DNA from: a phage
Length of the DNA stretch: 64,000 bases
Strand: one strand, 5' to 3'
Sequence record: PZ445488.1
The notes beneath the pieces are model-generated. The model did not search any database, was not told the DNA's origin, and saw only the letters and a list, made by a program, of their open reading frames with translations. Shown one piece after another: positions 17,759-40,935 of the stretch. Each line of letters starts with the position of its first letter. Position 1 is the first letter of the stretch. Position numbers and translations under genes: made by a program.

Positions 17759-17796
17759 GATAGGTCTATAATAACATAACCATAGACCTTGTAAAC
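17759..17796 (-). promoter_or_regulatory. PeSL-like early promoter with stem-loop
   Basis: Minus sense GTTTAC...TATTATAGACCTATC with TAGGTCTAT/ATAGACCT inverted repeat. Confidence 0.5.
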
Positions 17797-17798
17797 AA

Positions 17799-18086
17799 CT
17801 AAAAGAAACTTTTTTCGGTATTTTTTCCACTGAACCAAACAGACTTCGGGATTTTTTGTAATTTTTCAGATTTAAGTTTCTCTTCCTGTTCTTTCTTATA
17901 TACACTCTTGTCGTACTGGAGCATCTCTATGGCATTCTTTTGCAAATGATCTAAGGTAATTAAGGCTTTAGTTTTTCCTTTCAAGGAAGAGTCCTGGCGA
18001 ACTTCCTCGCTATATTGCATCGTAGAACTAACCATACGATGTGCATAGAGTTCGACTGCGGCTTTAATTTTTTGCATAAAATCCAT
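17799..18086 (-). CDS. hypothetical protein
   Basis: 95 aa ORF, ATG start. Confidence 0.45.
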   Translation of the reverse strand: MDFMQKIKAAVELYAHRMVSSTMQYSEEVRQDSSLKGKTKALITLDHLQKNAIEMLQYDKSVYKKEQEEKLKSEKLQKIPKSVWFSGKNTEKSFF

Positions 18087-18223
18087 AACATATCCTCTTT
18101 GATTTGTACATCATTATTTTAAATATTTCTATGCCCTCAGTAGGTTCCTGGTGTCCTTCTTTGAGGTAAGCCATATGATTATTCATCTTTATGGCTTTTG
18201 TTACCTCAGGACTTCCTGTAAGC

Positions 18224-19225
18224 TTATTTCAGTAAAGTTACTTCAGAGATTTCCTCCCAACCATCTTTATCAGTTGAAATAAAATCTGCTACATAAAGAG
18301 CCGTACGTAATGATACATTGCGAAGACGAGATACGTTAGCCTTCATCCAGGACAATGCTTTGTACGTTTCAGCATCAGTCAAGCCACGTTTCTGCATCAT
18401 GTCAGTAGATAATATTACATCTTCAACTCGAACCATAATCTCTTCATTAGAGTGTACTCCAAGGTCCAAATACACTGAACGAGATACTAAAGCTTGAAGG
18501 TGTGGAGCAAGTTTCGAACCGCGTTCTAACTCTTTATCAATATCAACGTTTGTAATGAAAACGATAGTACCTTCAAACTCAAATTCTTTATCGATACCCT
18601 TATCCTCGAGATAAGATGACGCAGTGCTCCAACAAACTTTGCGTTTATCTCCGGTATCTAATGCTGCTTTAAGAAGGTTCAGGATGTCCATATCTGAGAA
18701 TACGTCAACGTCATCGATTAAGAGAACGCTGTCTTCATCACGGTTGAGCCAAAGTTGTTCGTAAAGGCCAATACCGGAGATTTTACCATTAATGCTTTTG
18801 TATTTGATGAAACCATTATCATTAGCATTATTAAGTGCTTTATCCAGAGAATACGTCTTACCAATACCAGCTGCACCTGAAATAATGAGTGAACGAATTT
18901 TGCCATCAATAATGCCATTCGTCATCATGTTCATTACTTTAAAGCGTTTGTTGATACGAGTTTTCATATCTTCAGTGCTTTCAACAACTGCAACTGGTGA
19001 CGTCTCAACTCCTTCCATTACGATGTCTGATTTGAAGACCCATACTCCACGTTCAGAACCATCAATCATAACGAAAATTTTACCGTCACCTAAGTGGGAA
19101 CATTCAGGATTAAGCTTTGCCGGGAACCATGTCTTTGTGGCAACATAAGAACCAGAGATTTCGTTATTACGATAGATACCTTTTTTGATTTGAACGTTGA
19201 ACATTTTATTCTCCAATTTACTCAT
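18224..19225 (-). CDS. P-loop NTPase (Walker A/B) of unknown function
   Basis: 333 aa; Walker A GAAGIGKT, Walker B-like LLIDDVD. Confidence 0.6.
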   Translation of the reverse strand: MSKLENKMFNVQIKKGIYRNNEISGSYVATKTWFPAKLNPECSHLGDGKIFVMIDGSERGVWVFKSDIVMEGVETSPVAVVESTEDMKTRINKRFKVMNMMTNGIIDGKIRSLIISGAAGIGKTYSLDKALNNANDNGFIKYKSINGKISGIGLYEQLWLNRDEDSVLLIDDVDVFSDMDILNLLKAALDTGDKRKVCWSTASSYLEDKGIDKEFEFEGTIVFITNVDIDKELERGSKLAPHLQALVSRSVYLDLGVHSNEEIMVRVEDVILSTDMMQKRGLTDAETYKALSWMKANVSRLRNVSLRTALYVADFISTDKDGWEEISEVTLLK

Positions 19226-19233
19226 TTCGTTTC

Positions 19234-19271
19234 GATAGGTCTATAGTATCATATCCTAAAAGCATGTACAC
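19234..19271 (-). promoter_or_regulatory. PeSL-like early promoter with stem-loop
   Basis: GATAGGTCTATAGTATCATATCC...GTACA motif upstream of ATPase gene. Confidence 0.45.
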
Positions 19272-19300
19272 TACTTTTTAAAAATATTTTAACCCCCTAA

Positions 19301-19318
19301 GGGGACCCGAAGGTCCCC
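19301..19318 (-). terminator. GGGGACC-UUCG-GGUCCCC hairpin at 3' end of late gene
   Basis: Perfect 7 bp GC stem with UUCG loop 5 nt after stop of 19323..19589; near-identical hairpin at 37209..37224. Confidence 0.45.
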
Positions 19319-19322
19319 ACAT

Positions 19323-19589
19323 TTACTTATCACACTTAGCAACATAATTAGGCATATCACAGAATACAGAGCGAGTAACTACTCGTCCCTTTGACCATGC
19401 TTCAGTTGCTTGTCCGGCCGTGCTATTAATATAGCTTGATTTAATGTTCTCAATACCCTGAGAATGTGATGCATTTACCGAACCGTTAGAAGGCGCAGGA
19501 GCCGGTGGTAACCAGTCTCCTGCGCCCGTGGTAGCACCAACAGAGAATGCCATCATTACTGCGAATAAACCAATTACTAATTTTTTCAT
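19323..19589 (-). CDS. small secreted protein (signal peptide), late-promoter driven
   Basis: 88 aa; N-terminal MKKLVIGLFAVMMAFSVGA signal-like segment; TATAAATA 29 nt upstream. Confidence 0.55.
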   Translation of the reverse strand: MKKLVIGLFAVMMAFSVGATTGAGDWLPPAPAPSNGSVNASHSQGIENIKSSYINSTAGQATEAWSKGRVVTRSVFCDMPNYVAKCDK

Positions 19590-19616
19590 ATTTACCTCAA
19601 GTTAATGGTTATTTAT

Positions 19617-21797: not shown

Positions 21798-21923
21798 TTT
21801 ACCATACTCGTTTCAATAAGATTCACTATGCCGTTTACCATGTTATAAGTAAACATCGGATAATTGTATTGTACTACAACATAAGCGATAAGCAAAAGTT
21901 TCATTTTGTTCTCCGTTCATTTT

Positions 21924-21962
21924 GGTAGGACTACTATAACATAATCCTACCAAGATGTAAAC
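21924..21962 (-). promoter_or_regulatory. PeSL-like early promoter with stem-loop
   Basis: GTAGGACTACTATAACATAATCCTAC...GTAAAC on plus (GTTTAC -35 on minus). Confidence 0.45.
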
Positions 21963-22195
21963 TACCGATTGTGTTTTAAATGTTGATAAAGTTCTTCAAC
22001 TTGTTTTGGGTCCAAAACAATTAGATCATTTTCTTGACGAAGATAAATCCATCCCTTATCCCCAGGGCCATTTTTACAAAACATCACCACCATATCATCA
22101 TCTTCAGCGCTTTCAGGTAAAAGTTCAAGTACACCGTCTTCAGATTTTCCAGTATAATCGTAAAGCATAATGTCCTCACATAATCTCGTTAACAT
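21962..22195 (-). CDS. hypothetical protein
   Basis: 77 aa acidic ORF, ATG start. Confidence 0.4.
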   Translation of the reverse strand: MLTRLCEDIMLYDYTGKSEDGVLELLPESAEDDDMVVMFCKNGPGDKGWIYLRQENDLIVLDPKQVEELYQHLKHNR

Positions 22196-22355: not shown

Positions 22356-22359
22356 AACG

Positions 22360-22411
22360 TTCTCCTCTAGTAAGTAAGGACTACTATAACACAACCTGAG
22401 GAGAAGTAAAC
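22360..22411 (-). promoter_or_regulatory. PeSL-like early promoter with stem-loop
   Basis: TCTCCTC...GAGGAGA inverted repeat around TATAAC, GTTTAC on minus. Confidence 0.45.
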
Positions 22412-22456
22412 TGATAGATGCCAAAAAGCCCCAACCATAAGGAAGGGGCTAGTAAA

Positions 22457-23593: not shown

Positions 23594-23783
23594 AAGAGTC
23601 CTTAGTTAAATTTTCTAAATATGTTTCTAAATCATTTTCAGCTTTATTGATAGATTTTACTAATTCGTAATATGTTTCGGCATCTCCATATTCAGAAGAT
23701 ATTTCAAAAGACAAATCCTTTTCTAAACTAATAATTTCACCAACTAAAAATAATATTTCGTTCTTTTGTTCGCGAGTAATCAT
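23586..23783 (-). CDS. hypothetical protein
   Basis: 65 aa acidic ORF, ATG start. Confidence 0.4.
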   Translation of the reverse strand: MITREQKNEILFLVGEIISLEKDLSFEISSEYGDAETYYELVKSINKAENDLETYLENLTKDSYG

Positions 23784-23971
23784 AAGGAATTTATATAATT
23801 AATAAGTTCTTGTTCTTTATTATCGAATTCTTTAGAAAGTTCTTCGTACTCGTTTTCACTAAAAGGACCGCATTCATTACAAACTTTTTCCAATTCACTA
23901 TTTTTATCCATAACTTCGTGGATAAGAGAAAAGAGTTTGTCTTTTTGTTCTTTACTTAAACTCATAACCAT
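23780..23971 (-). CDS. hypothetical protein
   Basis: 63 aa ORF, ATG start. Confidence 0.4.
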   Translation of the reverse strand: MVMSLSKEQKDKLFSLIHEVMDKNSELEKVCNECGPFSENEYEELSKEFDNKEQELINYINSL

Positions 23972-25984: not shown

Positions 25985-25991
25985 TTTGATT

Positions 25992-26041
25992 TCTCCTCTA
26001 GTTGACAGGTCTATAGTAACACAACTAGAGGAGAAGTAAAC
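25992..26041 (-). promoter_or_regulatory. PeSL-like early promoter with stem-loop upstream of regB
   Basis: 13-nt inverted repeat TCTCCTCTAGTTG/CAACTAGAGGAGA flanking TATAGT; GTTTAC on minus. Confidence 0.5.
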
Positions 26042-26045
26042 TACT

Positions 26046-26261
26046 TTATTGATAAAACGGAGTTAAAGCCCAAGATTCTTTAGATACCATATCGGTGAAA
26101 TGTCTCATCTCTTCGATTTGGCGACGACGCTGGTCAGCATAATCTTCTTCACCTTCTTCCTTACAATCTTCAAGGTCTTCTTCAAGATACTTTAAGTATT
26201 CACTACAAATTTTGTTGACCTTTTCTTGAAAGTCCAATAACCCAGTAATAGTAGAAGCCAT
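26046..26261 (-). CDS. hypothetical acidic protein
   Basis: 71 aa ORF, ATG start. Confidence 0.45.
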   Translation of the reverse strand: MASTITGLLDFQEKVNKICSEYLKYLEEDLEDCKEEGEEDYADQRRRQIEEMRHFTDMVSKESWALTPFYQ

Positions 26262-28126: not shown

Positions 28127-28456
28127 TTATACTCTAGGCTTTTGAGCTTGTTTGGTATTGGATTCCCATGCGGCTTTGGTAATTTTGTTAGCGGCATAGC
28201 CAAAGGCATTAGATAGAACACCTTTAGAGTTGAATACATCCAATCCAATAAGTACACCTGCTGTGTTAAATTTAGGAGCAAAGTATGCATTAGTTTTAGA
28301 AAGAGCTTTTTTCAATTCAGGGTCTTGAACCAAGCCATCAAAAACGCCTTTACTATTTACTTTATATGTTACTTTGGGATTTTTACCTTCTTCGATAGCA
28401 GCTTTCTGTTCAGCAGATAATGTAACTTCAGTGATAAATTCTTGATACATTTTCAT
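28127..28456 (-). CDS. internal-protein-like protein with capsid-targeting N-terminus
   Basis: 109 aa; N-terminus MKMYQEFITEV resembles T4 internal protein CTS MKTYQEFIAE. Confidence 0.55.
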   Translation of the reverse strand: MKMYQEFITEVTLSAEQKAAIEEGKNPKVTYKVNSKGVFDGLVQDPELKKALSKTNAYFAPKFNTAGVLIGLDVFNSKGVLSNAFGYAANKITKAAWESNTKQAQKPRV

Positions 28457-28462
28457 TTTTCC

Positions 28463-28876: not shown

Positions 28877-28894
28877 AATTTCCTCCAAGTAGTT

Positions 28895-28933
28895 GATGAA
28901 TGTATAGTATCAAAGTCCTTGGAGGAAGTAAAC
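28895..28933 (-). promoter_or_regulatory. PeSL-like early promoter with stem-loop upstream of denV
   Basis: 9-nt inverted repeat TCCTCCAAG/CTTGGAGGA flanking TATAGTAT; GTTTAC on minus. Confidence 0.5.
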
Positions 28934-28934
28934 A

Positions 28935-29216
28935 CTATTTTTCTGAAGCGCCTGAAATATATTTTTCAAGACGTTGTTTCATTAACGAGCCGTTCTTAGC
29001 GATTTCTTCCGGTTTATCGCACATACGCAACAGTGCTTCAAGCTTAGCGATATCGCTGGTACGTTCAAATTTGCGAGTATCTATCTTACTGGCAAGTTCA
29101 GAAATACGTGCTAATAGACTTTCGGCTTCAACCAAAGCTGCACCTAGCTTAGTTGCAAATGTGTCAGTAGCTTCGTTAAGAATAGATTCTGATAAAAATT
29201 CACTATATGTTTTCAT
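28935..29216 (-). CDS. internal-protein-like protein with capsid-targeting N-terminus
   Basis: Start at ATG 29216 ([16 protein letters not shown]...), ATGA overlap with lysozyme stop. Confidence 0.5.
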
Positions 29217-29735: not shown

Positions 29736-30194
29736 TTATAGGAGGGTAGTGAGCACCTTATATAATGATTTGCCCATCACATATTCCCATTGAGAAGGTT
29801 TAATTAAAGCGAATGCATCAAATTCAGGAATCTGTCGTCCGTCTGGGAATGTATGATAGGAATTACAAACACTGTTTCTGAATTGCTCGTGCTCTACAGG
29901 GATGGTATATAGGAACAGATGAATATTCTTATTGTCTGAGTAATGATGTTCACCTAGGTCTTTCAGGAAGGCAGGGTCATATTGTGTAAACCCAGTTTCT
30001 TCTTCGCATTCACGAATAGCGGCTTCAATAGGAGATTCGCCAGGTTCGACACGGCCTTTAGGAATATCCCAGCGATGAGCTAATGCACCTTTAGGACGAG
30101 AACCAGTTACACGCCCCATGAATAATTCTTTATCTTCGGTAAGGAAAATAATACCGGCTGATAGCTCTTTCACTTTATTTTTCTTACTCATCAT
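29736..30194 (-). CDS. nudE: Nudix hydrolase NudE
   Basis: 152 aa; Nudix box GRVEPGESPIEAAIRECEEETG; position downstream of e as in T4. Confidence 0.85.
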   Translation of the reverse strand: MMSKKNKVKELSAGIIFLTEDKELFMGRVTGSRPKGALAHRWDIPKGRVEPGESPIEAAIRECEEETGFTQYDPAFLKDLGEHHYSDNKNIHLFLYTIPVEHEQFRNSVCNSYHTFPDGRQIPEFDAFALIKPSQWEYVMGKSLYKVLTTLL

Positions 30195-30435
30195 CTCGGT
30201 CCCATGATTTGGCCATTAATTCGGACATAAATTCTTCAATGCGCGTTTCTTTAGATGGACTTTCACTATTAGAGACCACAAGTTTGTAATCTGCAATAGG
30301 ACAGAACATATCAAGGTCCGTATTAAGGTCGTCTTTGATTTTTTCTTCTGACACATCTTTATCGTATGTGTACAGATAACTATCACATGATTCTGATTTA
30401 ATGTAAATTGCTATACTCATCTCAAATTCCTGCAT
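30184..30435 (-). CDS. hypothetical acidic protein
   Basis: 83 aa ORF, ATG start. Confidence 0.45.
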   Translation of the reverse strand: MQEFEMSIAIYIKSESCDSYLYTYDKDVSEEKIKDDLNTDLDMFCPIADYKLVVSNSESPSKETRIEEFMSELMAKSWDRDDE

Positions 30436-30908
30436 TCGGTAATAAAACGTTCAACTTCATTATTCTTGGCTTTTATCTTGTCTTTATGTTCTTGTAAACC
30501 ACTTTTAATAAGATTAATAATGATGGCGGCGGTACCGCCGCCAATGATGCCACCAACAACACTTACGATACTAGATGCTAATAAGATAGCAATAATATCA
30601 ACAAAACCGAAAGAACTCACCTTAGTACTGAAAAACCATACCGACGGTACAAATATAATCCATCCTGTTATCCATTGGCACTTATTGAAAAACTTTTCAA
30701 GCTCAGCTTGAGTTGTTCGTATTACTTCATCGATAGGTTGATATCCATTAATGTATCTGTTCACGATAATACCTGCTGGCTGGTCGATTTTAAATTCTTG
30801 GCAAATACGTTTCACTAAGTAGGATGGACATCCTGTCCAATCCACTGAATAGTACGAAATACCTTCGTTGCCATCGTCTATATTAGACCAATATGTTTTG
30901 TTAATCAT
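30417..30908 (-). CDS. hypothetical membrane protein, C-terminal E-x-F-I-x-E-C-R motif family
   Basis: 163 aa; hydrophobic core; ends ...VERFITECRNLR. Confidence 0.5.
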   Translation of the reverse strand: MINKTYWSNIDDGNEGISYYSVDWTGCPSYLVKRICQEFKIDQPAGIIVNRYINGYQPIDEVIRTTQAELEKFFNKCQWITGWIIFVPSVWFFSTKVSSFGFVDIIAILLASSIVSVVGGIIGGGTAAIIINLIKSGLQEHKDKIKAKNNEVERFITECRNLR

Positions 30909-31594
30909 TACCAGCCTTCCATAGGGAATTCCAGATAAACTTGAGCATTGACACGAATTTCATTGGTAATCTTTTTAACTCGGTCTGTATTACGAGATAC
31001 ACGTCCGAACCAACGCCATCCGTTACTAGTTGCACGAGAACCAGTGTGCCATGTTTGCCAATCAAACTGAAGAAGAGTACGATCTGGAGCTTCCCATTTC
31101 TCTAGTTCGCCTTTTTCGATTTTTTCGAGGACTTCTTTGTGCCACTGGCGATAGATAAGTTCGCCATCAGGAATCTGACTGAACTCTGCAGTTCCTGTTG
31201 CAAAATGAGTAGGACACACATCAGCGTTAACAAGACCAAGAATATGTTCAGACAAATAGCGAGGATTGTCATAGTCAGGTTGTCCTGCAGTAATAAAATG
31301 TTGACCAACCGGAATATCCGGGCGTGGTACGTCATCATGGTGATAACCAGGAATAGCAGGATACCAACCAGGCATCAGCATATGGACTCGTGAATCAAAT
31401 ACTACATCTGAGTCTTTCCAATCGTCAGGGAGATTTTGGATAAAGCTACGAGTAATTGGACCGCCGTTATCAAAAGCAAAATTCAAATCGCAATTAAAGA
31501 ACATAGGCTCGTTTTTAATCTGGTCATTTTTAATCGCATGAGCAAAACCACCTACTGCACGAGCTTGACTATTAAACACTTTAGAACTATTCAT
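30908..31594 (-). CDS. hypothetical protein
   Basis: 228 aa; Trp/His-rich; no confident domain assignment. Confidence 0.5.
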   Translation of the reverse strand: MNSSKVFNSQARAVGGFAHAIKNDQIKNEPMFFNCDLNFAFDNGGPITRSFIQNLPDDWKDSDVVFDSRVHMLMPGWYPAIPGYHHDDVPRPDIPVGQHFITAGQPDYDNPRYLSEHILGLVNADVCPTHFATGTAEFSQIPDGELIYRQWHKEVLEKIEKGELEKWEAPDRTLLQFDWQTWHTGSRATSNGWRWFGRVSRNTDRVKKITNEIRVNAQVYLEFPMEGW

Positions 31595-31595
31595 A

Positions 31596-31901
31596 TTATT
31601 TTCCTCGACATTCTTTAATGAAATTTTCTAGATTGGTAGATTCAATAGCTTTTTTACGAGCTTCTGCGTGTTCTTCTTCAGACAATTTACATTTATAATT
31701 GACCCAGACGTTATGGTCGAAACTAGTCGTGGCATATAATAACAATGCTCCAACGAATAGCAAAAACGGCGATAAGAATACAAAACCAGGAACACCATCC
31801 ATACTGTAAGCCTTTTGTAATACTGCAACAGAAAGAGCTGCGTAAAAAAGTGATACAAATATTGTTAAAAGACCAATTCGGTTGGTTTCGCCTAATTTCA
31901 T
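31596..31901 (-). CDS. hypothetical membrane protein, C-terminal E-x-F-I-x-E-C-R motif family
   Basis: 101 aa; two hydrophobic helices; ends ...LENFIKECRGK. Confidence 0.5.
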   Translation of the reverse strand: MKLGETNRIGLLTIFVSLFYAALSVAVLQKAYSMDGVPGFVFLSPFLLFVGALLLYATTSFDHNVWVNYKCKLSEEEHAEARKKAIESTNLENFIKECRGK

Positions 31902-31922
31902 AATATTCTCCTCATGTTTTAA

Positions 31923-31958
31923 TAGGACTACTATAACATAGTCCTATCAGTTTGTACA
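31923..31958 (-). promoter_or_regulatory. PeSL-like early promoter with stem-loop
   Basis: TAGGACTACTATAACATAGTCCTA inverted repeat around -10-like element. Confidence 0.45.
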
Positions 31959-31959
31959 C

Positions 31960-32160
31960 TTATTTTGACATTTCTTCGATGTCACGACGATACCCATCAC
32001 GAACTTCACGAAGAGCTTCAAGGCCACACATAGGCTCGATACCAGTAATGTGAACTTGATTAATCTGATACTCTACATCTTCTAACTGAGCGAAAACATA
32101 ACGACGTTCTGCTGCACAACCAGGTTTAGCTTTACCGAAACGTTTATTCAAAGTAGTCAT
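31960..32160 (-). CDS. hypothetical protein
   Basis: Track start is GTG; in-frame ATG at 32160 with GGAG SD. Confidence 0.4.
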   Translation of the reverse strand: MTTLNKRFGKAKPGCAAERRYVFAQLEDVEYQINQVHITGIEPMCGLEALREVRDGYRRDIEEMSK

Positions 32161-32189
32161 TTTTATATCTCCATTCACTCATTTGTTTT

Positions 32190-32228
32190 GATAGGTCTAT
32201 AGTATCAACAACTACAGACCTTGTAAAC
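32190..32228 (-). promoter_or_regulatory. PeSL-like early promoter with stem-loop
   Basis: GATAGGTCTATAGTATCAACAACTACAGACCTTGTAAAC on plus. Confidence 0.5.
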
Positions 32229-32240
32229 TGTTTTGTGAAA

Positions 32241-33197
32241 TTATTTGAAAGGTTTTACCATATGAAAGTTTTGTTTGAAACGCTTGACGTAATCGTCGTG
32301 TCCTAAGCTTTGGTACATACTTACTACTTTGCTATAATTTTCCCAAGCGAACTCACGGAACCATCCTGATGTGATTGATGTACAGACCTTTTCAAGGGCC
32401 ATCATAAAACTATCACGTGGATGGATTTCAAAGTTATTAGGAATCTGAGAACGTTCTAACGCTAGTACACATGATTCTTCGTATACGCCGGCCAATTTGA
32501 CCATTTCTGGTAATGATTCGAACTTCTCGCGTGAGGTCATGACTTCAGAACCATCTTTCATATAAAATGTATACGCTGGACGGTCTGTTAGTGCAATGGC
32601 TTCATGAATAGTATCATGGTCATATGTATAGATGTCATCTTTAAAGAACGCACTTTTAGAAGTGTCAAGAACTGGGTGAGCATAATTCAAGGTTTCTTTC
32701 TGGCGTTTCAGCATAATTTCAGTAAGTTCATCGTTCAGTGTAACACCTTTACCACGAAGATACTGAATATGGTTCATAGTCTTTAAAAAGAATGGATTAT
32801 TTTTCTTGAAACGATGAGACATCTTAATTGCAAGACATATCTCAGGAGTTGCCCAGTAAAACCCGTTCAAACGGTCTTTAGTCAAATTTTTCTTGGCGTA
32901 TTTTAAAAGGTCATAAGAAGACGTGAAATCTTCAGGAGTGAGTTCACCGACTAGTTCGCGAACGTTAGTGATAGCCGGAACGATGTATGCTTCAAAATGA
33001 GTTTCGCGTCCATTATGGAAGCATTTGAAAACTTGGACATCAGGGTTATCTTGGTGAACATATACACCCATCATTTGATTTTTGAATGCATTCCAAGAAC
33101 CTTGGTCCGCAATAAAGTCCCAATCACTATTTTTAATAGCGCTAGAATCAATAAGACCGTGATAGTGAAGTGCACGAGAACCAATAACTAACATCAT
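32241..33197 (-). CDS. hypothetical protein with weak nucleotidyltransferase-like N-terminal motif
   Basis: 318 aa; IGSRALHYHG...SDWDF loosely fits GS...DxD pattern; low confidence in the domain. Confidence 0.5.
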   Translation of the reverse strand: MMLVIGSRALHYHGLIDSSAIKNSDWDFIADQGSWNAFKNQMMGVYVHQDNPDVQVFKCFHNGRETHFEAYIVPAITNVRELVGELTPEDFTSSYDLLKYAKKNLTKDRLNGFYWATPEICLAIKMSHRFKKNNPFFLKTMNHIQYLRGKGVTLNDELTEIMLKRQKETLNYAHPVLDTSKSAFFKDDIYTYDHDTIHEAIALTDRPAYTFYMKDGSEVMTSREKFESLPEMVKLAGVYEESCVLALERSQIPNNFEIHPRDSFMMALEKVCTSITSGWFREFAWENYSKVVSMYQSLGHDDYVKRFKQNFHMVKPFK

Positions 33198-33225
33198 AAT
33201 ATTTTCCTCGGATTAATTCATTAAC

Positions 33226-33477
33226 TTAAATTTCGCGACATGCGATATTATATTCATCCCAGAGGTCGTCATGTGAAGCCTCTACCAATGGAACGATTGT
33301 GCCGTTTATGTCTTCATTATAAGGGCAAATTGTACAGTGCGCATCTTCGAATCGGATGTCTTTGTGTTCAGATTTTTTATAACGCATATCGAATATCTTT
33401 GCAAACTTTTCACGAGTAATAGTTTTAGCAACTACTTCGGTTCCGATACTTTCGTAATAAATCATTGTGGACTCCAT
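33226..33477 (-). CDS. hypothetical protein
   Basis: 83 aa ORF, ATG start. Confidence 0.45.
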   Translation of the reverse strand: MESTMIYYESIGTEVVAKTITREKFAKIFDMRYKKSEHKDIRFEDAHCTICPYNEDINGTIVPLVEASHDDLWDEYNIACREI

Positions 33478-33484
33478 TTGTTTT

Positions 33485-33523
33485 GATAGGACTACTATAA
33501 CATAGCCCTATCTTGTTGTAAAC
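33485..33523 (-). promoter_or_regulatory. PeSL-like early promoter with stem-loop
   Basis: GATAGGACTACTATAACATAGCCCTATC...GTAAAC on plus. Confidence 0.5.
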
Positions 33524-33527
33524 TGTT

Positions 33528-33725
33528 TTAGCAAGAATAACTAGATGATACCCAGCCTTGAACAGTGATACTATTGTGGGATAATGAGATCGCGTCCTGG
33601 AGATTCAGACCTGCGTTATCTTCAATCCACAATGTAACTTCTTCACGCTCTTCGGTTGCAATCTGGAACAGGTTTTCCAGGGCAGCTACTGCCGTACGTA
33701 CAGCACAATCTAATTCACGAGACAT
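33528..33725 (-). CDS. small protein, C-terminal GWVSSSxxC family, paralog 1
   Basis: 65 aa ending ...VQGWVSSSYSC. Confidence 0.5.
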   Translation of the reverse strand: MSRELDCAVRTAVAALENLFQIATEEREEVTLWIEDNAGLNLQDAISLSHNSITVQGWVSSSYSC

Positions 33726-33734
33726 ATGATTTCC

Positions 33735-34007
33735 TTAACAAGTGTGAGAAGATGCAACCCAACCACCATCTTCAAGGCTCAGGTTGTAGTCGTATTGGTA
33801 AACGTCAGCCCATTCAGCCTGGCCGTTTTTTGTACAACGTTCAAGATCGGCTTTAAGATGTCCGGGTGAATGATAGGTTCCACCCATGCCATAAGCTGGA
33901 TACAAGTTGAATGTTGTGTTTTGTTTATCAGCAATTTCTTTGGCAGCCTCAATAGCTGCATAGATTTTTGCTACAGCTTCAGCCAGTTCGGTTTGTTCTT
34001 TAGACAT
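33735..34007 (-). CDS. small protein, C-terminal GWVSSSxxC family, paralog 2
   Basis: 90 aa ending ...DGGWVASSHTC; shares YxxGxGxTY motif with paralog 3. Confidence 0.5.
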   Translation of the reverse strand: MSKEQTELAEAVAKIYAAIEAAKEIADKQNTTFNLYPAYGMGGTYHSPGHLKADLERCTKNGQAEWADVYQYDYNLSLEDGGWVASSHTC

Positions 34008-34016
34008 AATGATTCC

Positions 34017-34322
34017 TTAGCACAACGCAGAAGACGAAACCCAAGCACCTTCAGTAATAACGTATCCATTACCTTCACGCTTAACATCGCCGCCATTATT
34101 TTCAATTTCATCTTTCATCCACTGGGATACGATTTCACCCTTAGGATAATAAGTACGACCGCTACCATAATCACCTACAGAAAATGATACGGCATATTGG
34201 TCTGCGATCTTTGTTGCTTCTTCTTCGATACGTTCAGCTTGATTCAGAAGTTTATAAATTGCATCTGAAGCGGATTTGGCATCATTAAACTCTGGTACTT
34301 TAATTTCAATAATCTTACTCAT
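34017..34322 (-). CDS. small protein, C-terminal GWVSSSxxC family, paralog 3
   Basis: 101 aa ending ...EGAWVSSSALC. Confidence 0.5.
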   Translation of the reverse strand: MSKIIEIKVPEFNDAKSASDAIYKLLNQAERIEEEATKIADQYAVSFSVGDYGSGRTYYPKGEIVSQWMKDEIENNGGDVKREGNGYVITEGAWVSSSALC

Positions 34323-34678
34323 TTTCTACATTCCTTAATAAAGTTTTCGATTGTTTCATTTTCACGTCTAGCTAGGAGTTCATTATAACTAATCATTTGA
34401 GAAGCGTAAACCTTTTTATTTTTCTTGTTGTGGTTTATAAAATCGTAGTAAAAATAGACTACAGTAAAAAATGATGCGATGGATGCAAAGGCTTGGGTAT
34501 ACCGTAAGTCCTGCCATTGGTCTGTGAATCCACCAGTGTTCCCTATAAATCCTAACACAACGCCGTCAATAAGAAATCCAACTAATCCAAAGGCAAATCC
34601 CATGCCAATACTCATAATAAAAATTAGAATGTTCTCACCAAGAGAAGGCCATACGGTTAAGAGTTGAGGCTTTTGCAT
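34319..34678 (-). CDS. hypothetical membrane protein, C-terminal E-x-F-I-x-E-C-R motif family
   Basis: 119 aa; hydrophobic; ends ...IENFIKECRK. Confidence 0.5.
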   Translation of the reverse strand: MQKPQLLTVWPSLGENILIFIMSIGMGFAFGLVGFLIDGVVLGFIGNTGGFTDQWQDLRYTQAFASIASFFTVVYFYYDFINHNKKNKKVYASQMISYNELLARRENETIENFIKECRK

Positions 34679-36282: not shown

Positions 36283-36327
36283 TTTATTATCCAACGAGAG
36301 CATTATACTCTGCTCTCAAGAGTTTGT
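36283..36327 (-). repeat. 45-nt intergenic cassette, copy B (identical to 6872..6916)
   Basis: Exact 45-nt identity with copy A, same position relative to downstream start codon. Confidence 0.7.
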
Positions 36328-36330
36328 AAA

Positions 36331-36558
36331 TTATTTTTTAATCAAATTAACATAAAACTTGGCGTCTTCCGGGTGCATTCCTTCGCAGTATTCTTCAACC
36401 ATGAACTTCTTAACAGCTTCATAAGGACCACTCAGATTAAGCTCAGTTGTCCAGAACTTGGAATCTTGTACTGAATCGATACGAACTTCAGGGTGACGGT
36501 TGCGAATAACTTCTTCTGTGTATTCATAATCAACGACATCAATACTAACTTTAGCCAT
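36331..36558 (-). CDS. hypothetical protein
   Basis: 75 aa ORF, ATG start. Confidence 0.45.
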   Translation of the reverse strand: MAKVSIDVVDYEYTEEVIRNRHPEVRIDSVQDSKFWTTELNLSGPYEAVKKFMVEEYCEGMHPEDAKFYVNLIKK

Positions 36559-36588
36559 TTTGTTTCTCCTCTTGATTTGATAGGTCTA

Positions 36589-36620
36589 TAGTAACACCGT
36601 CCATGGTGTTTGTACATCAT
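36589..36620 (-). promoter_or_regulatory. PeSL-like early promoter element
   Basis: GATAGGTCTATAGTAACACC...TGTACA motif on plus. Confidence 0.4.
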
Positions 36621-37120
36621 TTATTTTTAATTTTGCAAATTTTTCCAGCTTCGATACATGCAGCATAGATGATGCTCTGGGCAATTTTATTGCTAGTAGA
36701 CCTTGCAATCACACTAAGAACAATTTCTTTTTCTTCACCACCACAACCCCAGGACCTTTGCTCATGAGTACCTTTAACTACGGCTGAAACTTCAACAGAA
36801 CGTCCGCCATCAGAAGTTTTAACATCTACAACCCAATCGCCATCTTTCTCTTCAACCTGTGGTTTATCCCAAGAAATACTAATATATGATTCACTGTCAA
36901 TAGAAGTCGCCGGGTTTTTCTTTACTGTAAGGCCTTCACTTTCCAGCCATTCAATAGTATTTGCGCATAAATCAGAAGAACACCTCATCGGAAACCGGCA
37001 AGATTTTTCACCTTTAGCTGCAGTGTTATACATCTTTTCTAAAATACGCTTTTGCACGTTTTTAAAAATAGTTTCAGCAGATTCTTCAGATTTTTTATTC
37101 AGTTCAGTGTAAAGACTCAT
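36617..37120 (-). CDS. hypothetical protein
   Basis: Start at ATG 37120 (MSLYTELNKK...) with GAGGAAAAT SD; longer track ORF would overlap upstream gene and hairpin. Confidence 0.5.
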   Translation of the reverse strand: MSLYTELNKKSEESAETIFKNVQKRILEKMYNTAAKGEKSCRFPMRCSSDLCANTIEWLESEGLTVKKNPATSIDSESYISISWDKPQVEEKDGDWVVDVKTSDGGRSVEVSAVVKGTHEQRSWGCGGEEKEIVLSVIARSTSNKIAQSIIYAACIEAGKICKIKNK

Positions 37121-37138
37121 AATATTTTCCTCTGTGGT

Positions 37139-37177
37139 TGATAAATCTATAGTATCACATCTAGGGAAGAAGTAAAC
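37139..37177 (-). promoter_or_regulatory. PeSL-like early promoter
   Basis: GTTTAC...TACTATAGA on minus sense upstream of 36617..37120. Confidence 0.45.
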
Positions 37178-37208
37178 AACTTTTTCAGTAAGTTGTAGAC
37201 CCCCTAAT

Positions 37209-37224
37209 GGGGACCGAAGTCCCC
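37209..37224 (-). terminator. GGGGAC-UUCG-GUCCCC hairpin at 3' end of late gene
   Basis: 6 bp GC stem with UUCG loop, 6 nt after stop of 37230..37856; near-identical to 19301..19318. Confidence 0.45.
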
Positions 37225-37229
37225 ATTCT

Positions 37230-37856: not shown

Positions 37857-37891
37857 TGATGGTCCTTAGAAAGTAGGTTTATTGTTTACTA

Positions 37892-37899
37892 TATTTATA
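37892..37899 (-). promoter_or_regulatory. T4-type late promoter TATAAATA
   Basis: Exact TATAAATA on minus strand ~36 nt upstream of ATG 37856. Confidence 0.5.
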
Positions 37900-37900
37900 C

Positions 37901-37928
37901 AAAAAAGCCCCAACCTTTCGGAAGGGGC
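37901..37928 (-). terminator. rho-independent terminator (GC hairpin + U6) at distal end of tRNA region
   Basis: GCCCC..CCTT-TCGG-AAGG..GGGGC hairpin followed by TTTTTT on minus strand. Confidence 0.55.
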
Positions 37929-37971
37929 TATATACCTTGTCGGGGTTTCCACCTACTAGGTAAGTGTTTGT

Positions 37972-38063: not shown

Positions 38064-38231
38064 TCAAAAACGCTACTCGGCTTACGGCAAAGATATTTCC
38101 TCGAATCGATAATTCTGTGCGCCGTTTCTGCTGTGATGTAAGGGGATATTAACGAATCATAAAGATTTATTAAGACCAGTCCTTACTCAGGGAACATCAG
38201 TCCGACGACTTGCCGGTAGCGACCCGGCTTC

Positions 38232-38576: not shown

Positions 38577-38594
38577 ATTTTCCTCACTTGAAGT

Positions 38595-38671
<77 letters not shown>

Positions 38672-38674
38672 AAT

Positions 38675-38749: not shown

Positions 38750-38828
38750 TTAATAACTTTCTATTATGAAAGGCACTTTAGAGCACCTTTGGTAATAGAG
38801 GGTATGAATTAATAATAACACATAATTC

Positions 38829-39344: not shown

Positions 39345-39348
39345 TTAA

Positions 39349-39639
39349 TCACCGTACCATATTAATGTAATTATATTCAATGCAACGTAATTTCAAAGGA
39401 TTCTTGAAAATATCATATTCAAGAGGGCCTTTTTCTGTTTCAATAAAGAAATCAAAGTTAACTGTGTTAAATTTATCATCTTCACAGAGTAATTTAACCT
39501 GTGAAGACGAACGGTCAATGTAAACCTTTTCAACTTCAAAATATGTTAAAATGCCATAATCATCGACTAGTGCTTTAGCTGCACGTTGATCGCTTTCGTA
39601 TCCATTCTCGACAGATTTTACTTTAGCATAAAGAATCAT
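39349..39639 (-). CDS. hypothetical protein
   Basis: 96 aa ORF, ATG start. Confidence 0.45.
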   Translation of the reverse strand: MILYAKVKSVENGYESDQRAAKALVDDYGILTYFEVEKVYIDRSSSQVKLLCEDDKFNTVNFDFFIETEKGPLEYDIFKNPLKLRCIEYNYINMVR

Positions 39640-39998
39640 GAGTGTTCCACCACTTCAAAGGTATGAGCATCAACAATATGATACCAGTCAAAATTTTCTT
39701 CTGCGTTTTTATAAATTTCGCGAAGAGCTTCAACAGTTTTTCCTGTAGCAACAAGGTCGTCAATACCACCAAGAGGATAACAGTCATAACCAGCAAACAG
39801 AAGGAAATTAATAGTTTCTGTAGGTTCTGGATGCAAAACACCATTATCATCTACCACTTCAAAGAAAGTGTAAGAAGGAGTACAAGTTTTAATCCAGGCC
39901 CATGCTTGAGCTGCTGAATCAAACGGATTACGGAATAAACGACAATCCGGGTCTTTAGAAGGATTTGCTTCAAAATCCGCATATATGTGATATTTCAT
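39636..39998 (-). CDS. hypothetical protein
   Basis: Track start is TTG; in-frame ATG at 39998 with AAGGTGAG SD. Confidence 0.45.
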   Translation of the reverse strand: MKYHIYADFEANPSKDPDCRLFRNPFDSAAQAWAWIKTCTPSYTFFEVVDDNGVLHPEPTETINFLLFAGYDCYPLGGIDDLVATGKTVEALREIYKNAEENFDWYHIVDAHTFEVVEHS

Positions 39999-39999
39999 T

Positions 40000-40206
40000 T
40001 TACTCACCTTTTGCAATTTTATCCATAACGATAGCGATTAAGCCGATTAGAAATGCTACTACCAATGAGATAGAGTTTTCAGTTGTTGTCAGTAGTCCAC
40101 AAATGAATCCTACAAACATCGAAAAACTAAAAGCCATTGAAGCAATTACTACAGCAACATTACGAATCAGTTCAGCGCGTTTCATTTTATTTCTCCATTT
40201 ACTCAT
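40000..40206 (-). CDS. hypothetical membrane protein
   Basis: 68 aa, two hydrophobic helices. Confidence 0.45.
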   Translation of the reverse strand: MSKWRNKMKRAELIRNVAVVIASMAFSFSMFVGFICGLLTTTENSISLVVAFLIGLIAIVMDKIAKGE

Positions 40207-40213
40207 TTGATTT

Positions 40214-40249
40214 GATAGGACTACTATAACATAGTCCTATCATGTAAAC
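40214..40249 (-). promoter_or_regulatory. PeSL-like early promoter with stem-loop
   Basis: GATAGGACTACTATAACATAGTCCTATC + GTAAAC (plus); same core as 40542..40580. Confidence 0.5.
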
Positions 40250-40251
40250 TA

Positions 40252-40515
40252 TTAAATACCAGCTTCGCGTTTAACATAATCGACGTAAGCTTGGATAGCT
40301 TTCTTGCTGGTAATTTTTACCTGGCCTCGTCCGTTGCCTTCTTTAGAGTTTTTCTTAACAACTACATTACCATCTTTAACACCCCATACATGGACATAAG
40401 TACCGATGTTTCGGTCGTAGAACATTGCATGGTCGTTGTTGTAAGAGAATGATTCGTAGTTCTCTGACAGAGTAGAAGATTGAGATTCAGCGATAAATTC
40501 TTTATAGGTTTTCAT
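40252..40515 (-). CDS. internal-protein-like protein with capsid-targeting N-terminus (ipI position)
   Basis: 87 aa; N-terminus MKTYKEFIAES matches T4 IP CTS. Confidence 0.6.
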   Translation of the reverse strand: MKTYKEFIAESQSSTLSENYESFSYNNDHAMFYDRNIGTYVHVWGVKDGNVVVKKNSKEGNGRGQVKITSKKAIQAYVDYVKREAGI

Positions 40516-40541
40516 TTGTTTTTCCGTTTGGTTGTTGATTT

Positions 40542-40580
40542 GATAGGACTACTATAACATAGTCCTATCAGCATGTAAAC
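40542..40580 (-). promoter_or_regulatory. PeSL-like early promoter with stem-loop
   Basis: GATAGGACTACTATAACATAGTCCTATC...GTAAAC; minus sense GTTTAC-N17-TATAGT. Confidence 0.5.
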
Positions 40581-40583
40581 TAC

Positions 40584-40871
40584 TTACAGAAGAGTTTTTG
40601 CAATAATTTTAAGCTGAGCTACAGAAATATGCTTAGCTTTAAACAGTGCGGTCTCTTCGGCCGGAGAGATAACAACAGTAGCGCCATCTTTCTTAGCAGA
40701 CCATCCGTCCCCTAAGTAAACAGTACCTTTTACTTCTTCACCATCAACCAGACTAATCATCGGTTTACCCTCACGTCCTTTATTTGCTTTAATAACTTCG
40801 GAAGTAAGGGTTGCTTCGGTCAGAGTAGAAACGTTAGCAACAGGTGATATAAATTCTTTATAGGTTTTCAT
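40584..40871 (-). CDS. internal-protein-like protein with capsid-targeting N-terminus
   Basis: 95 aa; N-terminus MKTYKEFISPV. Confidence 0.55.
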   Translation of the reverse strand: MKTYKEFISPVANVSTLTEATLTSEVIKANKGREGKPMISLVDGEEVKGTVYLGDGWSAKKDGATVVISPAEETALFKAKHISVAQLKIIAKTLL

Positions 40872-40906
40872 TTTATTTCCTTGAGGTTGTTTATTTGATA
40901 GGATGA

Positions 40907-40935
40907 TAGTATCACACCATCATCCTTATGTAAAC
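40907..40935 (-). promoter_or_regulatory. PeSL-like early promoter with stem-loop
   Basis: GATAGGATGATAGTATCACACCATCATCC...GTAAAC. Confidence 0.45.

Follow-up and report, generated by a model that had tools for sequence, protein, structure and literature searches.

Probable early-promoter cassettes with predicted stem-forming spacers at the gene boundaries of an RB69/JS09-like phage

What are the short conserved elements that recur between the early genes of this phage, and do they mark the places at which small genes are exchanged? The window, the whole 64,000-nucleotide stretch analysed (PZ445488.1), is that of an RB69/JS09-like Mosigvirus (100% identity to a fragment of phage CEV1, ~95–97% to Mosigvirus genomes) with the gene order nrdC - tk - regB - denV - e - tRNA - ipI - 57B. 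The first-pass annotation had described a minus-strand intergenic family of 14 sites with a weak copy at 5979, and likened it to the promoter-early stem-loop (PeSL) elements of T4-type phages. An nhmmer profile trained on 13 cassettes, with site 40249 outside the training set, returned exactly that list: 14 strong matches (E 5e-13 to 3e-7) on the minus strand only, spanning 17754-40948 and recovering 40249, with weaker matches at 8344 (E = 1.5e-4) and 5979 (E = 0.04). Motif searches of the window likewise put the motif far above chance. GTTTAC-N15-19-TATAGT was matched five times, always on the minus strand, against 0.05 expected, and TAGWCCTATC with at most one mismatch 19 times against 5.4 expected. 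All 14 cassettes are intergenic, with the upstream stop codon on one side and a Shine-Dalgarno sequence (SD) and ATG on the other, and all lie within the nrdC-tk and e-tRNA-ipI early regions; none of the 14 strong profile matches falls among the late genes of the window (42-64 kb). The flanked ORFs gave no Pfam match. We consider it likely that this RB69/JS09-like T-even phage uses the elements as strong early promoters of the sigma70 type, each packaged with the signals of the downstream gene and serving as portable homology for gene shuffling. The sites are listed below; the number of each is the position at which its -35 element begins.

17741..17810 (-): cassette 17796, nrdC.8 homolog downstream; -35 GTTTAC 17796-17791, -10 TATTAT
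17762-17789 (-): hairpin of cassette 17796, arms AGGTCTAT/ATAGACCT around the -10, z -3.7
19226..19318 (-): cassette 19271, nrdC.10 downstream; -35 GTGTAC, -10 TACTAT; stem around the -10 absent (z -0.7)
19301-19318 (-): UUCG hairpin GGGGACCTTCGGGTCCCC before promoter 19271
21905..21976 (-): cassette 21962; -10 TATAGT
21922-21953 (-): 13-bp hairpin of cassette 21962, TTGGTAGGA.../...TCCTACCAA around the -10, z -7.1
22356..22451 (-): cassette 22411; spacer TTCTCCTC complementary to SD GAGGAGAA, a weak long-range stem (8 bp, z -1.45, not significant on energy)
~22418-22451 (-): intrinsic terminator before cassette 22411, AGCCCC..GGGGCT+T5
25985..26055 (-): regB promoter cassette, -35 at 26041
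25991-26035 (-): predicted 14-bp regB stem, spacer TTCTCCTCTAGTTG with CAACTAGAGGAGAA (holds the regB SD), z -5.2
28877..28947 (-): denV promoter cassette, -35 at 28933
28880-28927 (-): predicted 10-bp denV stem, TTCCTCCAAG with CTTGGAGGAA (holds the denV SD), z -5.9
31902..31973 (-): cassette 31959, bounding the mobile module of the 66-aa ORF on its downstream side; -35 GTGTAC, -10 TATAGT
31920-31949 (-): hairpin of cassette 31959, GATAGGACTA/TAGTCCTAT around the -10, z -5.6
31963..32160 (-): 66-aa ORFan with a cassette on each side
32161..32250 (-): cassette 32228, upstream boundary of the mobile module; upstream flank TTTCACAAAACA
32193-32221 (-): hairpin of cassette 32228, AGGTCTGTAG/CTATAGACCT, z -5.0
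33478..33537 (-): cassette 33523
33485-33512 (-): hairpin of cassette 33523, GATAGGGCTA/TAGTCCTATC, one G.U pair, z -6.5
36287..36331 (-): early promoter ATTTAC-N18-TATAAT; same-register hairpin around the -10 with arms of unrelated sequence, GAGAGCA/TGCTCTC, z -3.6
36559..36630 (-): cassette 36616, frd.3 homolog downstream; -35 ATGTAC, -10 TACTAT; small intra-spacer hairpin only (ACACC..GGTGT), conserved TAGACCTATC block kept
37121..37224 (-): cassette 37177; stem around the -10 absent (z +0.9)
37209-37224 (-): UUCG hairpin GGGGACTTCGGTCCCC before cassette 37177
40207..40258 (-): cassette 40249, tRNA.4 downstream; GTTTAC, spacer 15 nt
40213-40242 (-): perfect 11-12 bp hairpin of cassette 40249, z -6.6
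40516..40594 (-): cassette 40580, internal-protein gene downstream
40541-40570 (-): hairpin of cassette 40580, TGATAGGACTA/TAGTCCTATCA, z -6.8
40872..40949 (-): cassette 40935, ipI downstream
40900-40926 (-): hairpin of cassette 40935, distinct arms AGGATGAT/ATCATCCT, z -4.5
7173..7217 (-): early promoter beyond the range first reported; 13-bp hairpin GATGGTAGGAAGA/TCTTCCTATCGTC around the -10, z -6.6
5979..6040 (-): weak or degenerate copy, arms GATAGGTCT...AGACCTAT around TATAAT, no GTTTAC -35

At the sequence level, 12 of the 14 sites have the promoter form GTTTAC/GTGTAC, 17-18 nt, TGnTA(T/C)(A/T)(A/G)T, the exceptions being 40249 and 36616. The GTTTAC spacing of about 17 nt originally assigned to the family holds at most sites, but not at 40249 with its 15 nt, and the -35 itself reads ATGTAC at 36616 and GTGTAC at 19271 and 31959. 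The -10 sequence 'TATAAC' given in the first-pass annotation is the plus-strand reading of GTTATA; the actual -10 is TATAGT, TACTAT or TATTAT, preceded by TGn. The 22 nt upstream are modestly enriched in A+T (55-91%, mean ~73%, against 62.6% for the window) and often A-rich, as in the flank of 32228, and the SD is GGAG in 11 of the 14 cassettes. The spacings between sites (449, 3025, 889, 1926 and 285 nt) match those of the predicted early promoters of RB69 (Nolan 2006, PMC1524935), to which the sites seem orthologous. The consensus, together with orthology to T4 and RB69, suggests that the cassettes act as promoters.

Each cassette may be described as a compact intergenic unit that would combine an early promoter with the regulatory signals of the downstream gene. 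It opens with the upstream stop codon, set against an A/T-rich flank, and continues with the -35 GTTTAC, a 17-18 nt spacer, TGn and the -10; a conserved AG(A/T)CCTATCAA block at the discriminator/start position, a leader rich in A, the SD and the ATG complete it. The block is kept at sites without a complementary 5' arm, and its function is thus independent of the hairpin. The spacer would be the sole freely evolvable part of the unit, and appears to have taken on the role of 5' arm in an RNA helix. Since transcripts from the cassette's own promoter start downstream of the spacer, such a helix could form only in read-through transcripts arriving from upstream.

The inverted repeat around the -10, first taken as common to the family, is significant at eight of the 14 sites (17796, 21962, 31959, 32228, 33523, 40249, 40580 and 40935; z -3.7 to -7.1) but not at the six others, and in place of a single stem-loop anatomy we find three structural types. 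Class A is the 9-13 bp hairpin around the -10, whose loop consists of TGn and the first half of the -10. In class B, the spacer pairs over a longer range with the SD, at 26041 (regB), 28933 (denV) and, weakly, 22411. The third type, a GC-rich hairpin upstream of the -35, occurs at 19271, 37177 and 22411. Neither class A nor class B pairing is seen at 19271, 37177 and 36616. Perfect pairing over 7 bp or more surrounds the -10 at 12 of 22 strong promoters. Hairpins of other sequence also surround the -10 at early promoters outside the original list (7217, 7642, 8344 and 36331).

Stems of classes A and B exceed their frequency in shuffled spacers about tenfold, whether the window, Mosigvirus or other T4-like groups are considered. 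At 33 of 190 unique promoters, against 0.5 expected, a stem of 6 bp or more occurs in one exact register, with arms that vary by lineage, and stem covariation spans several T4-like genera. For class B, 82% of cells are paired compared with 66% in shuffles (0 of 500 shuffles as high), with a covariation score of 0.405 against 0.137 (0.05-0.15 in slid registers); stems formed with a spacer's own arm average 10 bp and cross-paired ones 5.9 bp. The same anatomy is seen in T4, with class A at ipI, trna.4, e.8 and ipII and class B at denV and regB.

A dyad lying over the -10, in the manner of classic operators, could instead be bound by a phage DNA-binding protein such as a repressor of early transcription. 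GATAGG...CCTATC half-sites are common to many arms, and sites that lack the 5' arm still conserve the CCTATCAA block. However, unrelated arms stay complementary in the same register, both in the window (GGATGAT/ATCATCC, GAGAGCA/TGCTCTC, TAGGAAGA/TCTTCCTA) and in other genera, where they diverge again (GATGAGGTA, TGAGGGCTA, GGGAACA). A sequence-specific protein would not tolerate such variation, and G.U-type mismatches are tolerated as well, so that we give an operator very little credence.

The palindrome might also act as DNA. If it extruded from supercoiled or single-stranded phage DNA into a cruciform or hairpin, it could modulate promoter opening, contribute to early-promoter shut-off or offer a target for endonuclease VII. 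The loop would expose TGn and T-12/A-11, the 3' arm is the region melted in the open complex, and the shut-off of T4 early promoters is still unexplained in reviews. The internal mismatches of the stems argue for RNA: G.T outnumbers A.C by 13 to 3 (p = 0.02, in related and non-independent sequences), and a G.T mismatch can pair only in RNA of the sense strand, whereas in a cruciform it would weaken both arms. Moreover, class B stems, with loops of 17-28 nt, pair with the SD, which is sensible only in RNA, and cruciforms form poorly from stems of 9-13 bp with loops of 6-8 nt. We regard extrusion in DNA as quite improbable.

If the helices form in RNA, as we favour, the two classes would have different roles. 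In class A, the spacer is predicted to pair with positions -7 to +5, placing a hairpin of 9-13 bp about 10 nt past the upstream stop codon, where it could serve the upstream message as a 3'-end barrier, attenuator or stabiliser. This is the weakest step of the proposal, as an 11-bp AU-rich stem without a U-tract would have to fill the role. None of the class A hairpins is followed by a U-run; their tails are A-rich (AAAACAAAT) and a terminator scan makes no call, so they are not canonical terminators. As rho-independent terminators (GC-rich stem with U-tract) they were rejected on account of these tails; such a description fits only the hairpin upstream of 22411 and, in part, that upstream of 19271. 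In class B, the spacer would act as an anti-SD for the downstream gene (regB, denV and weakly 22411), leaving read-through transcripts translationally silent, and transcripts from the gene's own early promoter alone would be translated. These RNA-level roles are deduced from the predicted pairing.

A broader reading, which we put forward tentatively and think rather less probable than its opposite, is that selection acts on the spacers of T-even early sigma70 promoters as RNA elements, not only in Mosigvirus but also in Tequatrovirus (T4 among them), Dhakavirus, Karamvirus and others. At about one third of promoters the spacer may pair with the discriminator/+1 region in one fixed register, and at about one fifth, those of regB and denV included, it may serve as an anti-Shine-Dalgarno sequence for the gene that follows. 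Were this so, translation of certain early genes would hinge on the promoter from which the transcript originated; expression would be limited to the immediate-early burst, and GGAG would be hidden from RegB on read-through RNA.

Do the cassettes also mark sites of gene exchange? As near-repeats of 35-60 bp at gene boundaries, they offer portable homology, through which the small genes they bound could be lost, exchanged or carried to other loci and genera, as in the PeSL mechanism. Rearrangement breakpoints occur at 11 of 13 cassette junctions and at 16 of the 41 junctions without a cassette (Fisher p = 0.009). Individual cases include 21962 (three relatives), the regB cassette at 26041 (six relatives), 36581/36596 at cassette 36616, 37132/37183 at cassette 37177, 40196-40251 at cassette 40249 and 40585 at cassette 40580; internal-protein genes are exchanged among cassettes 40249, 40580 and 40935. 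Phage mogra and L007 lack the 66-aa ORFan through an exact cassette-to-cassette deletion (31959..32222), which leaves one hybrid cassette. Tequatrovirus Ozark carries the same ORFan elsewhere, in the interval from nrdC.11 to nrdC.10, within a 357-bp cassette-ORF-cassette module that is 94.4% identical, whereas its flanks are 74-84% identical; a cassette stands at each edge and the homology stops inside the cassettes. Relatives are not strictly syntenic around the sites, and the view that these are recombination-prone accessory blocks is borne out by the enrichment, the exact ORF loss and the Ozark module. An endonuclease VII target at the palindromes would also explain recombination at the cassettes, and breakpoints do coincide with them, but in the hybrid cassette of mogra the crossover maps to the -35 or just past it, outside the stem.

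The cassettes might nonetheless be ordinary conserved early promoters with no special part in recombination, the surviving indels simply ending at gene boundaries and BLAST alignments stopping or restarting wherever intergenic sequence is conserved. Gene junctions, whatever their kind, hold 40 of the 55 breakpoint clusters. The -35 adjoins the upstream stop codon, which makes a -35 breakpoint also a gene-end breakpoint, the outcome expected if intact genes are selected for, and conserved cassettes readily let an alignment run on through them. Many breakpoints lie elsewhere (23601/23961, 28426, 30184/34662 and 38.6-39.4 kb), several of them recurrent, often at a homing-endonuclease insertion, at the leader codons of internal-protein genes, at terminators or at junctions where stop and start overlap; the cassettes are thus one contributor among other conserved short elements, not the sole one. 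Against a mere by-product stand the more frequent breakage of cassette junctions, the single hybrid cassette, the homology ending within both Ozark cassettes, and the inverse-PCR demonstration of recombination between PeSLs in RB49/phi1 (PMC2839356). We therefore consider this explanation unlikely. That cassettes mark where related phages swap small genes is supported by the genome comparisons, and the crossovers would probably fall inside the cassette itself.

PeSLs were defined by Arbiol 2010 (PMC2839356) and Comeau 2014 (PMC4122927), with the stem-loop in five positional subclasses. The sites described here show every sequence-level feature of that definition, in line with the PeSL-like identity first proposed for them: an early promoter, an A/T-rich flank, a stem-loop, a stop-to-SD/ATG position and location in small-ORFan/indel regions. 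They share with the RB49/phi1 elements (PMC2839356) a strong sigma70-type early promoter preceded by A/T-rich sequence, a stem-loop that overlaps the -10 or lies between it and the -35, and an upstream stop codon and downstream SD/ATG as bounds; both kinds of element crowd among the small ORFans of hyperplastic regions and are found where close relatives differ by insertions, deletions and replacements. However, the -35 is the T4-type GTTTAC here and TTGACA there, and the stems are A/U-rich (GATAGGACUA...) without a U-tract, whereas those of RB49/phi1 are polyG/polyC. The register is fixed here, with a loop of TGn and the first half of the -10, and some sites pair with the SD, which is undescribed for RB49.

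The PST/T4 and nt-1/KVP40 elements (PMC4122927) share with our sites the T-even promoter consensus TTTACW-N17-TAYWAT, the same internal-protein and ORFan loci, and degraded 'half' elements, comparable to 40249, 5979 and 36616. Their stem-loop lies just upstream of the promoter, an arrangement found here only at 19271, 37177 and 22411; at most of our sites, and at the T4 ipI, ipII and trna.4 promoters, the stem surrounds the -10. For the RB69 promoters, Nolan 2006 (PMC1524935) noted a preference for C at -3 to -1, matched here by the CCT of AGTCCT. That paper links them neither to a stem-loop or SD pairing nor to gene shuffling, and 'hairpin', 'palindrom' and 'inverted repeat' are absent from its text.

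The closest parallel to class B is the T4 gate of genes e, soc, 49 and I-TevI, in which a promoter lies inside an inhibitory hairpin (PMC3014915). As there, the predicted regB and denV helices (14 and 10 bp, covarying across genera) hold the SD, and the 5' arm, which is the spacer (-29 to -16), lies upstream of the proximal promoter's own starts; the proposed logic is also common to both, distal transcripts being silent and proximal ones translated. Whereas the T4 gate uses a late promoter (TATAAATA) that delays expression, the regB and denV promoters are of the early sigma70 type, and we rejected their membership in the late-promoter set. They would represent a variant of the mechanism in which an early promoter's own spacer is the 5' arm, and which would restrict translation to the immediate-early burst. 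In the T4 reviews and PeSL papers searched, we found no mention of an early-promoter gate or of a fixed-register hairpin. The cassettes themselves belong to the known PeSL class, and the spacer predicted to sequester the SD is their most novel aspect.

The 14 strong sites named in the first-pass annotation were recovered exactly by an nhmmer profile trained on 13 of the cassettes, which gave 14 strong matches between 17754 and 40948 (E 5e-13 to 3e-7), including the one at 40249, which lay outside the training set. The site at 5979, already described as weaker, was a weak match, as was 8344. All 14 lie on the minus strand and between genes, with a stop codon on the upstream side and a Shine-Dalgarno sequence (SD) and ATG on the downstream side. 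Their consensus runs from an A/T-rich flank through GTTTAC, 17–18 nt of spacer and TG(T/A)TA(T/C)(A/T)(A/G)T to the block AG(A/T)CCTATCAA, an A-rich leader, the SD (GGAG at 11/14 sites) and ATG. The proposed GTTTAC with its spacing of about 17 nt describes the family, except that the spacer at 40249 is 15 nt and the -35 at 36616 is ATGTAC; 'TATAAC', offered as an alternative -10, is the other strand of GTTATA.

GTTTAC-N15-19-TATAGT occurs five times in the window against 0.05 expected, on the minus strand every time, and the downstream block TAGWCCTATC 19 times against 5.4. Among the promoter scans, only this specific GTTTAC-based motif is informative. A loose scan, which tolerated one -35 mismatch and as many as two in the -10, stayed at chance level (58 against 41 +/- 6), and a generic TTGACA/TATAAT scan was uninformative (69 against 64). 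Inter-site distances, including about 449, 3026, 888, 1920 and 285 nt, match the spacings of early promoters predicted for RB69 (Nolan et al. 2006, PMC1524935), and thus the sites, as promoters, were already catalogued in the type phage. The same study described a preference for C at -3 to -1; secondary structure at the RB69 promoters is not reported there.

Across 30–42 kb the window matches a fragment of Escherichia phage CEV1 at 100% identity and many Mosigvirus (RB69/JS09-like) genomes at ~95–97%. Under gene names taken over from annotated JS09, the minus strand encodes nrdC.5-nrdC.11, mobD.1, rI, tk, vs, regB, vs.3-vs.8, internal-protein genes, denV, e, nudE, a run of RB69-type ORFans, e.3-e.6, frd.3, two tRNAs, tRNA.2-4, ipI, 57B, 57A, 1, 3, 2 and 4; baseplate genes follow on the plus strand from ~44.4 kb. 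A Pfam search of the cassette-flanked ORFs gave no match, and an Rfam search matched only the two tRNAs, tRNA-Arg and tRNA-Met. In phage Mizar (L002 23187-24062, against window 38598-38674) these two genes are separated by an additional tRNA-Asn and by an ORF resembling homing endonucleases (NUMOD3/DUF559). Baseplate genes 5.1, 5.4, 6, 7, 8, 9 and 10 (47629-57860) are only 81.5% identical to JS09, against ~96% elsewhere in the window, which points to a mosaic replacement of the wedge module. Between genes 5 and 5.1 (46762-47629), the window has two additional plus-strand ORFs (46779-47240 and 47237-47641) that JS09 lacks, with neither a Pfam match nor a flanking promoter cassette.

Folds that began at the spacer and ended at +20 or the ATG gave three arrangements: the spacer pairs around the -10 (class A), pairs with the downstream SD (class B), or does neither. 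The sites, named by the first base of the -35, are as follows.

17796, minus strand: class A
19271, minus strand: no -10 or SD stem
21962, minus strand: class A
22411, minus strand: class B, weak
26041, minus strand: class B, regB
28933, minus strand: class B, denV
31959, minus strand: class A
32228, minus strand: class A
33523, minus strand: class A
36616, minus strand: small hairpin within the spacer only
37177, minus strand: no -10 or SD stem
40249, minus strand: class A
40580, minus strand: class A
40935, minus strand: class A

The inverted repeats ascribed to the whole family thus enclose the -10 at the eight class A sites, and the remainder pair with the SD or lack such a stem. In class A the spacer pairs with the discriminator and start region in a 9–13 bp hairpin (-13 to -18 kcal/mol, z -3.7 to -7.1), whose loop is TGn plus the first four -10 bases. 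The arms vary (GATAGGACTA/TAGTCCTATC, AGGTCTAT/ATAGACCT, AGGATGAT/ATCATCCT), and unrelated arms enclose the -10 of early promoters that do not belong to the family: GAGAGCA/TGCTCTC at 36331, in the same register, and GATGGTAGGAAGA/TCTTCCTATCGTC at 7217. In class B the first 8–14 spacer nt (TTCTCCTCTAGTTG, TTCCTCCAAG) are complementary to the SD region of the next gene, with z of -5.2 and -5.9 for regB and denV and only -1.45 for 22411. The 3' block AG(A/T)CCTATCAA is retained even at sites without a matching 5' arm. It is thus a promoter element by itself, and it is the spacer that adapts.

At 19271 and 37177 (z about 0), the cassette is preceded by a GC-rich UUCG hairpin, GGGGAC(C)TTCGG(G)TCCCC, which lies past the stop codon of the preceding gene (19301-19318 and 37209-37224, minus strand). 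The hairpin is followed by TTAGGGGG, with which an alternative overlapping stem can form. A similar hairpin on the plus strand (54522-54537) precedes a late-promoter-like TATAAATA. Directly upstream of 22411 lies a full intrinsic terminator (AGCCCC..GGGGCT plus T-run, minus strand), present in two copies that are 85% identical (22418-22451 and 37897-37930).

Several lines of evidence suggest that the pairing is selected. Of the 22 strong early promoters of the window, 12 have a -10 spanned by a perfect stem of 7 bp or more (spacer-shuffle p each ~0.05 or lower). Across five GenBank Mosigvirus relatives and 54 IMG/VR loci around the lysozyme gene e, from several T4-like genera, class A and class B stems were each about ten times as frequent as in spacer shuffles in almost all groups that had more than a few promoters, the groups including JS98 (L014), VR20 (L026) and CC31-like (Karamvirus) phages (L015-L022). 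At least six contiguous Watson-Crick pairs in one exact register were found in 33 of 190 unique promoters, against 0.5 expected, with arms that vary by lineage (GATGAGGTA, TGAGGGCTA, GGGAACA, AGAGGACA and others). We rejected a reading of the repeats as protein operators, since it is the pairing that is conserved and not the arm sequences.

For class B, RNAalifold found no structure in the regions upstream of regB and denV when these were aligned with MAFFT, because indels shift the arms out of register, and a core-anchored gapless alignment was used instead. Among 31 unique arm pairs anchored on CTCC/GGAG only, pairing reached 82% against 66% in shuffles (0/500 reach it), with a covariation score of 0.405 against 0.137 and of 0.05–0.15 in slid registers; both sides change in 9/13 pairs. 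The helix upstream of denV occurs among phages as TTCCTCCAAG/CTTGGAGGAA, TTCTCCTGTAG/CTACAGGAGA, ATCTCCGTTTG/CAAACGGAGAT and ATATCCTCCC/GGGAGGATAT. Both classes also occur in T4, with class A hairpins at the promoters of ipI, trna.4, e.8 and ipII, and class B helices at denV and regB. The T4 omics study consulted lists neither start sites nor terminators.

Class B is meaningful only in RNA. Class A internal mismatches comprise 13 G.T and three A.C (p = 0.02), a signature of sense-strand RNA pairing that is only indicative because the sequences are related. Since a transcript from the cassette's own promoter starts inside or after the 3' arm, the helices would form only in read-through transcripts from upstream. 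On such RNA, the SD of a class B gene would be locked in a 10–14 bp helix, and RNA from the gene's own early promoter, without the 5' arm, would be translated. At regB, the helix would be a third control layer beside the known ones, rapid early-promoter shut-off and self-cleavage of regB's GGAG. In some T4-like phages (L012, L024, L028, L021, L019) the denV anti-SD lies 3' of the -10, as in GATGTCCTCC...GGAGGACATC, so that the SD would be sequestered even in the own-promoter transcript and the gene would be regulated by another logic.

Class A would place a stable hairpin ~10 nt past the upstream stop codon. A canonical intrinsic terminator was rejected at the sequence level, as the hairpins have no 3' U-tract and their tails are AAAACAAAT-like. 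Most plausibly, the class A hairpin would act as a 3' barrier, attenuator or stabiliser, for example shielding the upstream message once the downstream A-rich leader or GGAG has been cut by RegB or RNase E. The two family sites that lack any promoter-embedded stem, 19271 and 37177, each come with a GC hairpin upstream, a pattern consistent with a function at the 3' end of the preceding message, albeit in small numbers. Together, this suggests that the stem-loop is more than a terminator and that it would tie the translation of regB and denV to the choice of promoter.

The cassettes had also been taken to mark recombination-prone accessory regions, and the comparison of flanking genes agrees. 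Collinear BLAST chains of window 16–42.5 kb gave 57 distinct breakpoint clusters against 11 relatives, a sample limited by the four Mosigvirus loci in IMG/VR. Twelve clusters fell inside cassettes, against ~2 expected under uniform positions, and nine lay at most 6 nt from the first base of a -35. Since the -35 abuts the upstream stop codon, a per-junction test is fairer: a breakpoint occurred at 11/13 cassette junctions and 16/41 others (odds ratio 8.6, p = 0.009).

Nor is synteny strict. Phage mogra and L007 both lack the ORF at 31963-32160 together with one cassette, and a single hybrid cassette remains, with the upstream flank of 32228 and the stem and leader of 31959; RB69 promoter spacing likewise implies absence of this ORF. 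This 66-aa ORF is 97–100% identical in many Tequatrovirus phages. In phage Ozark the entire cassette-ORF-cassette unit (357 bp, 94.4% identity) sits between the nrdC.11 and nrdC.10 homologs, flanks that are only 74–84% identical, and the corresponding slot in the window holds cassette 19271 and a different ORF. There is also a hint of relocation for the frd.3 homolog (36331-36558), which lies between two promoters in the window and, according to annotation notes, near frd in T4.

Internal-protein genes at 40.2–40.9 kb were exchanged between cassettes 40249, 40580 and 40935, and the inner boundaries lie just past the conserved codons for MKTYKEFI, the leader by which T-even internal proteins are targeted to the capsid. 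ORFs 28127-28456, 40252-40515 and 40584-40871 share these 5' codons (28412-28458, 40471-40517, 40827-40873), and the replacement breakpoints 28426, 40486 and 40849 fall immediately past them. It was at this locus that such shuffling was first noted (Repoila 1994, as cited in a later paper).

Recurrent breakpoints away from cassettes (23601/23961, 28057/28426, 30184/34662, 38.6–39.4 kb) sit at overlapping stop/start junctions, the repeated terminator (37897-37930, marking the recurrent breakpoint 37887-37934), the internal-protein leader, or a homing-endonuclease insertion between tRNAs. In the tk.2 region, 23601-23961 is a 358-nt segment without a BLAST-alignable counterpart in seven of the relatives compared, where ~381 nt stand instead (562 nt in two more distant relatives); neither end has a cassette, and the window holds the minority allele. 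The 4.5-kb RB69-type ORFan block at 30184-34662, replaced by 0.3–0.8 kb in the more distant L008-L011, contains five early promoters, four of them family cassettes, and both its boundaries are gene junctions without cassettes.

The elements share every sequence-level feature of the promoter-early stem-loops (PeSLs) to which they had been likened (Arbiol 2010, PMC2839356; Comeau 2014, PMC4122927). Their stem position is nearer to that in RB49/phi1, where the stem overlaps the -10, than to PST/T4 PeSLs as described, with a stem just upstream of the promoter; the window stems are A/U-rich, whereas those of RB49/phi1 carry G/C tracts. Our literature search found no description of PeSLs in RB69-type phages. 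The window elements are a known kind of element, correctly identified, in a lineage for which it had not been made explicit. The PeSL picture, in which regulatory cassettes provide the portable homology through which small accessory genes are swapped, is thereby extended to the RB69/Mosigvirus lineage; one cassette-bounded gene, present at different loci in two genera, is a clean example. Many small accessory genes have anti-defence or host-range functions, and phages of this lineage find wide use in therapy and biocontrol.

The features that merit experimental work are the putative SD-sequestering spacer and the fixed-register hairpin, both apparently conserved across T-even genera. The reviews and PeSL papers searched yielded no description of SD sequestration at T4 early promoters; older subscription papers (e.g. 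Liebig and Rueger 1989) may contain one. The structures behind the proposed coupling of translation to promoter choice at regB and denV exist in T4 as well. Class B would follow the same logic as the gates of T4 e, soc, 49 and I-TevI (PMC3014915), but here the promoter is an early one and the sequestering arm is the promoter's own spacer.
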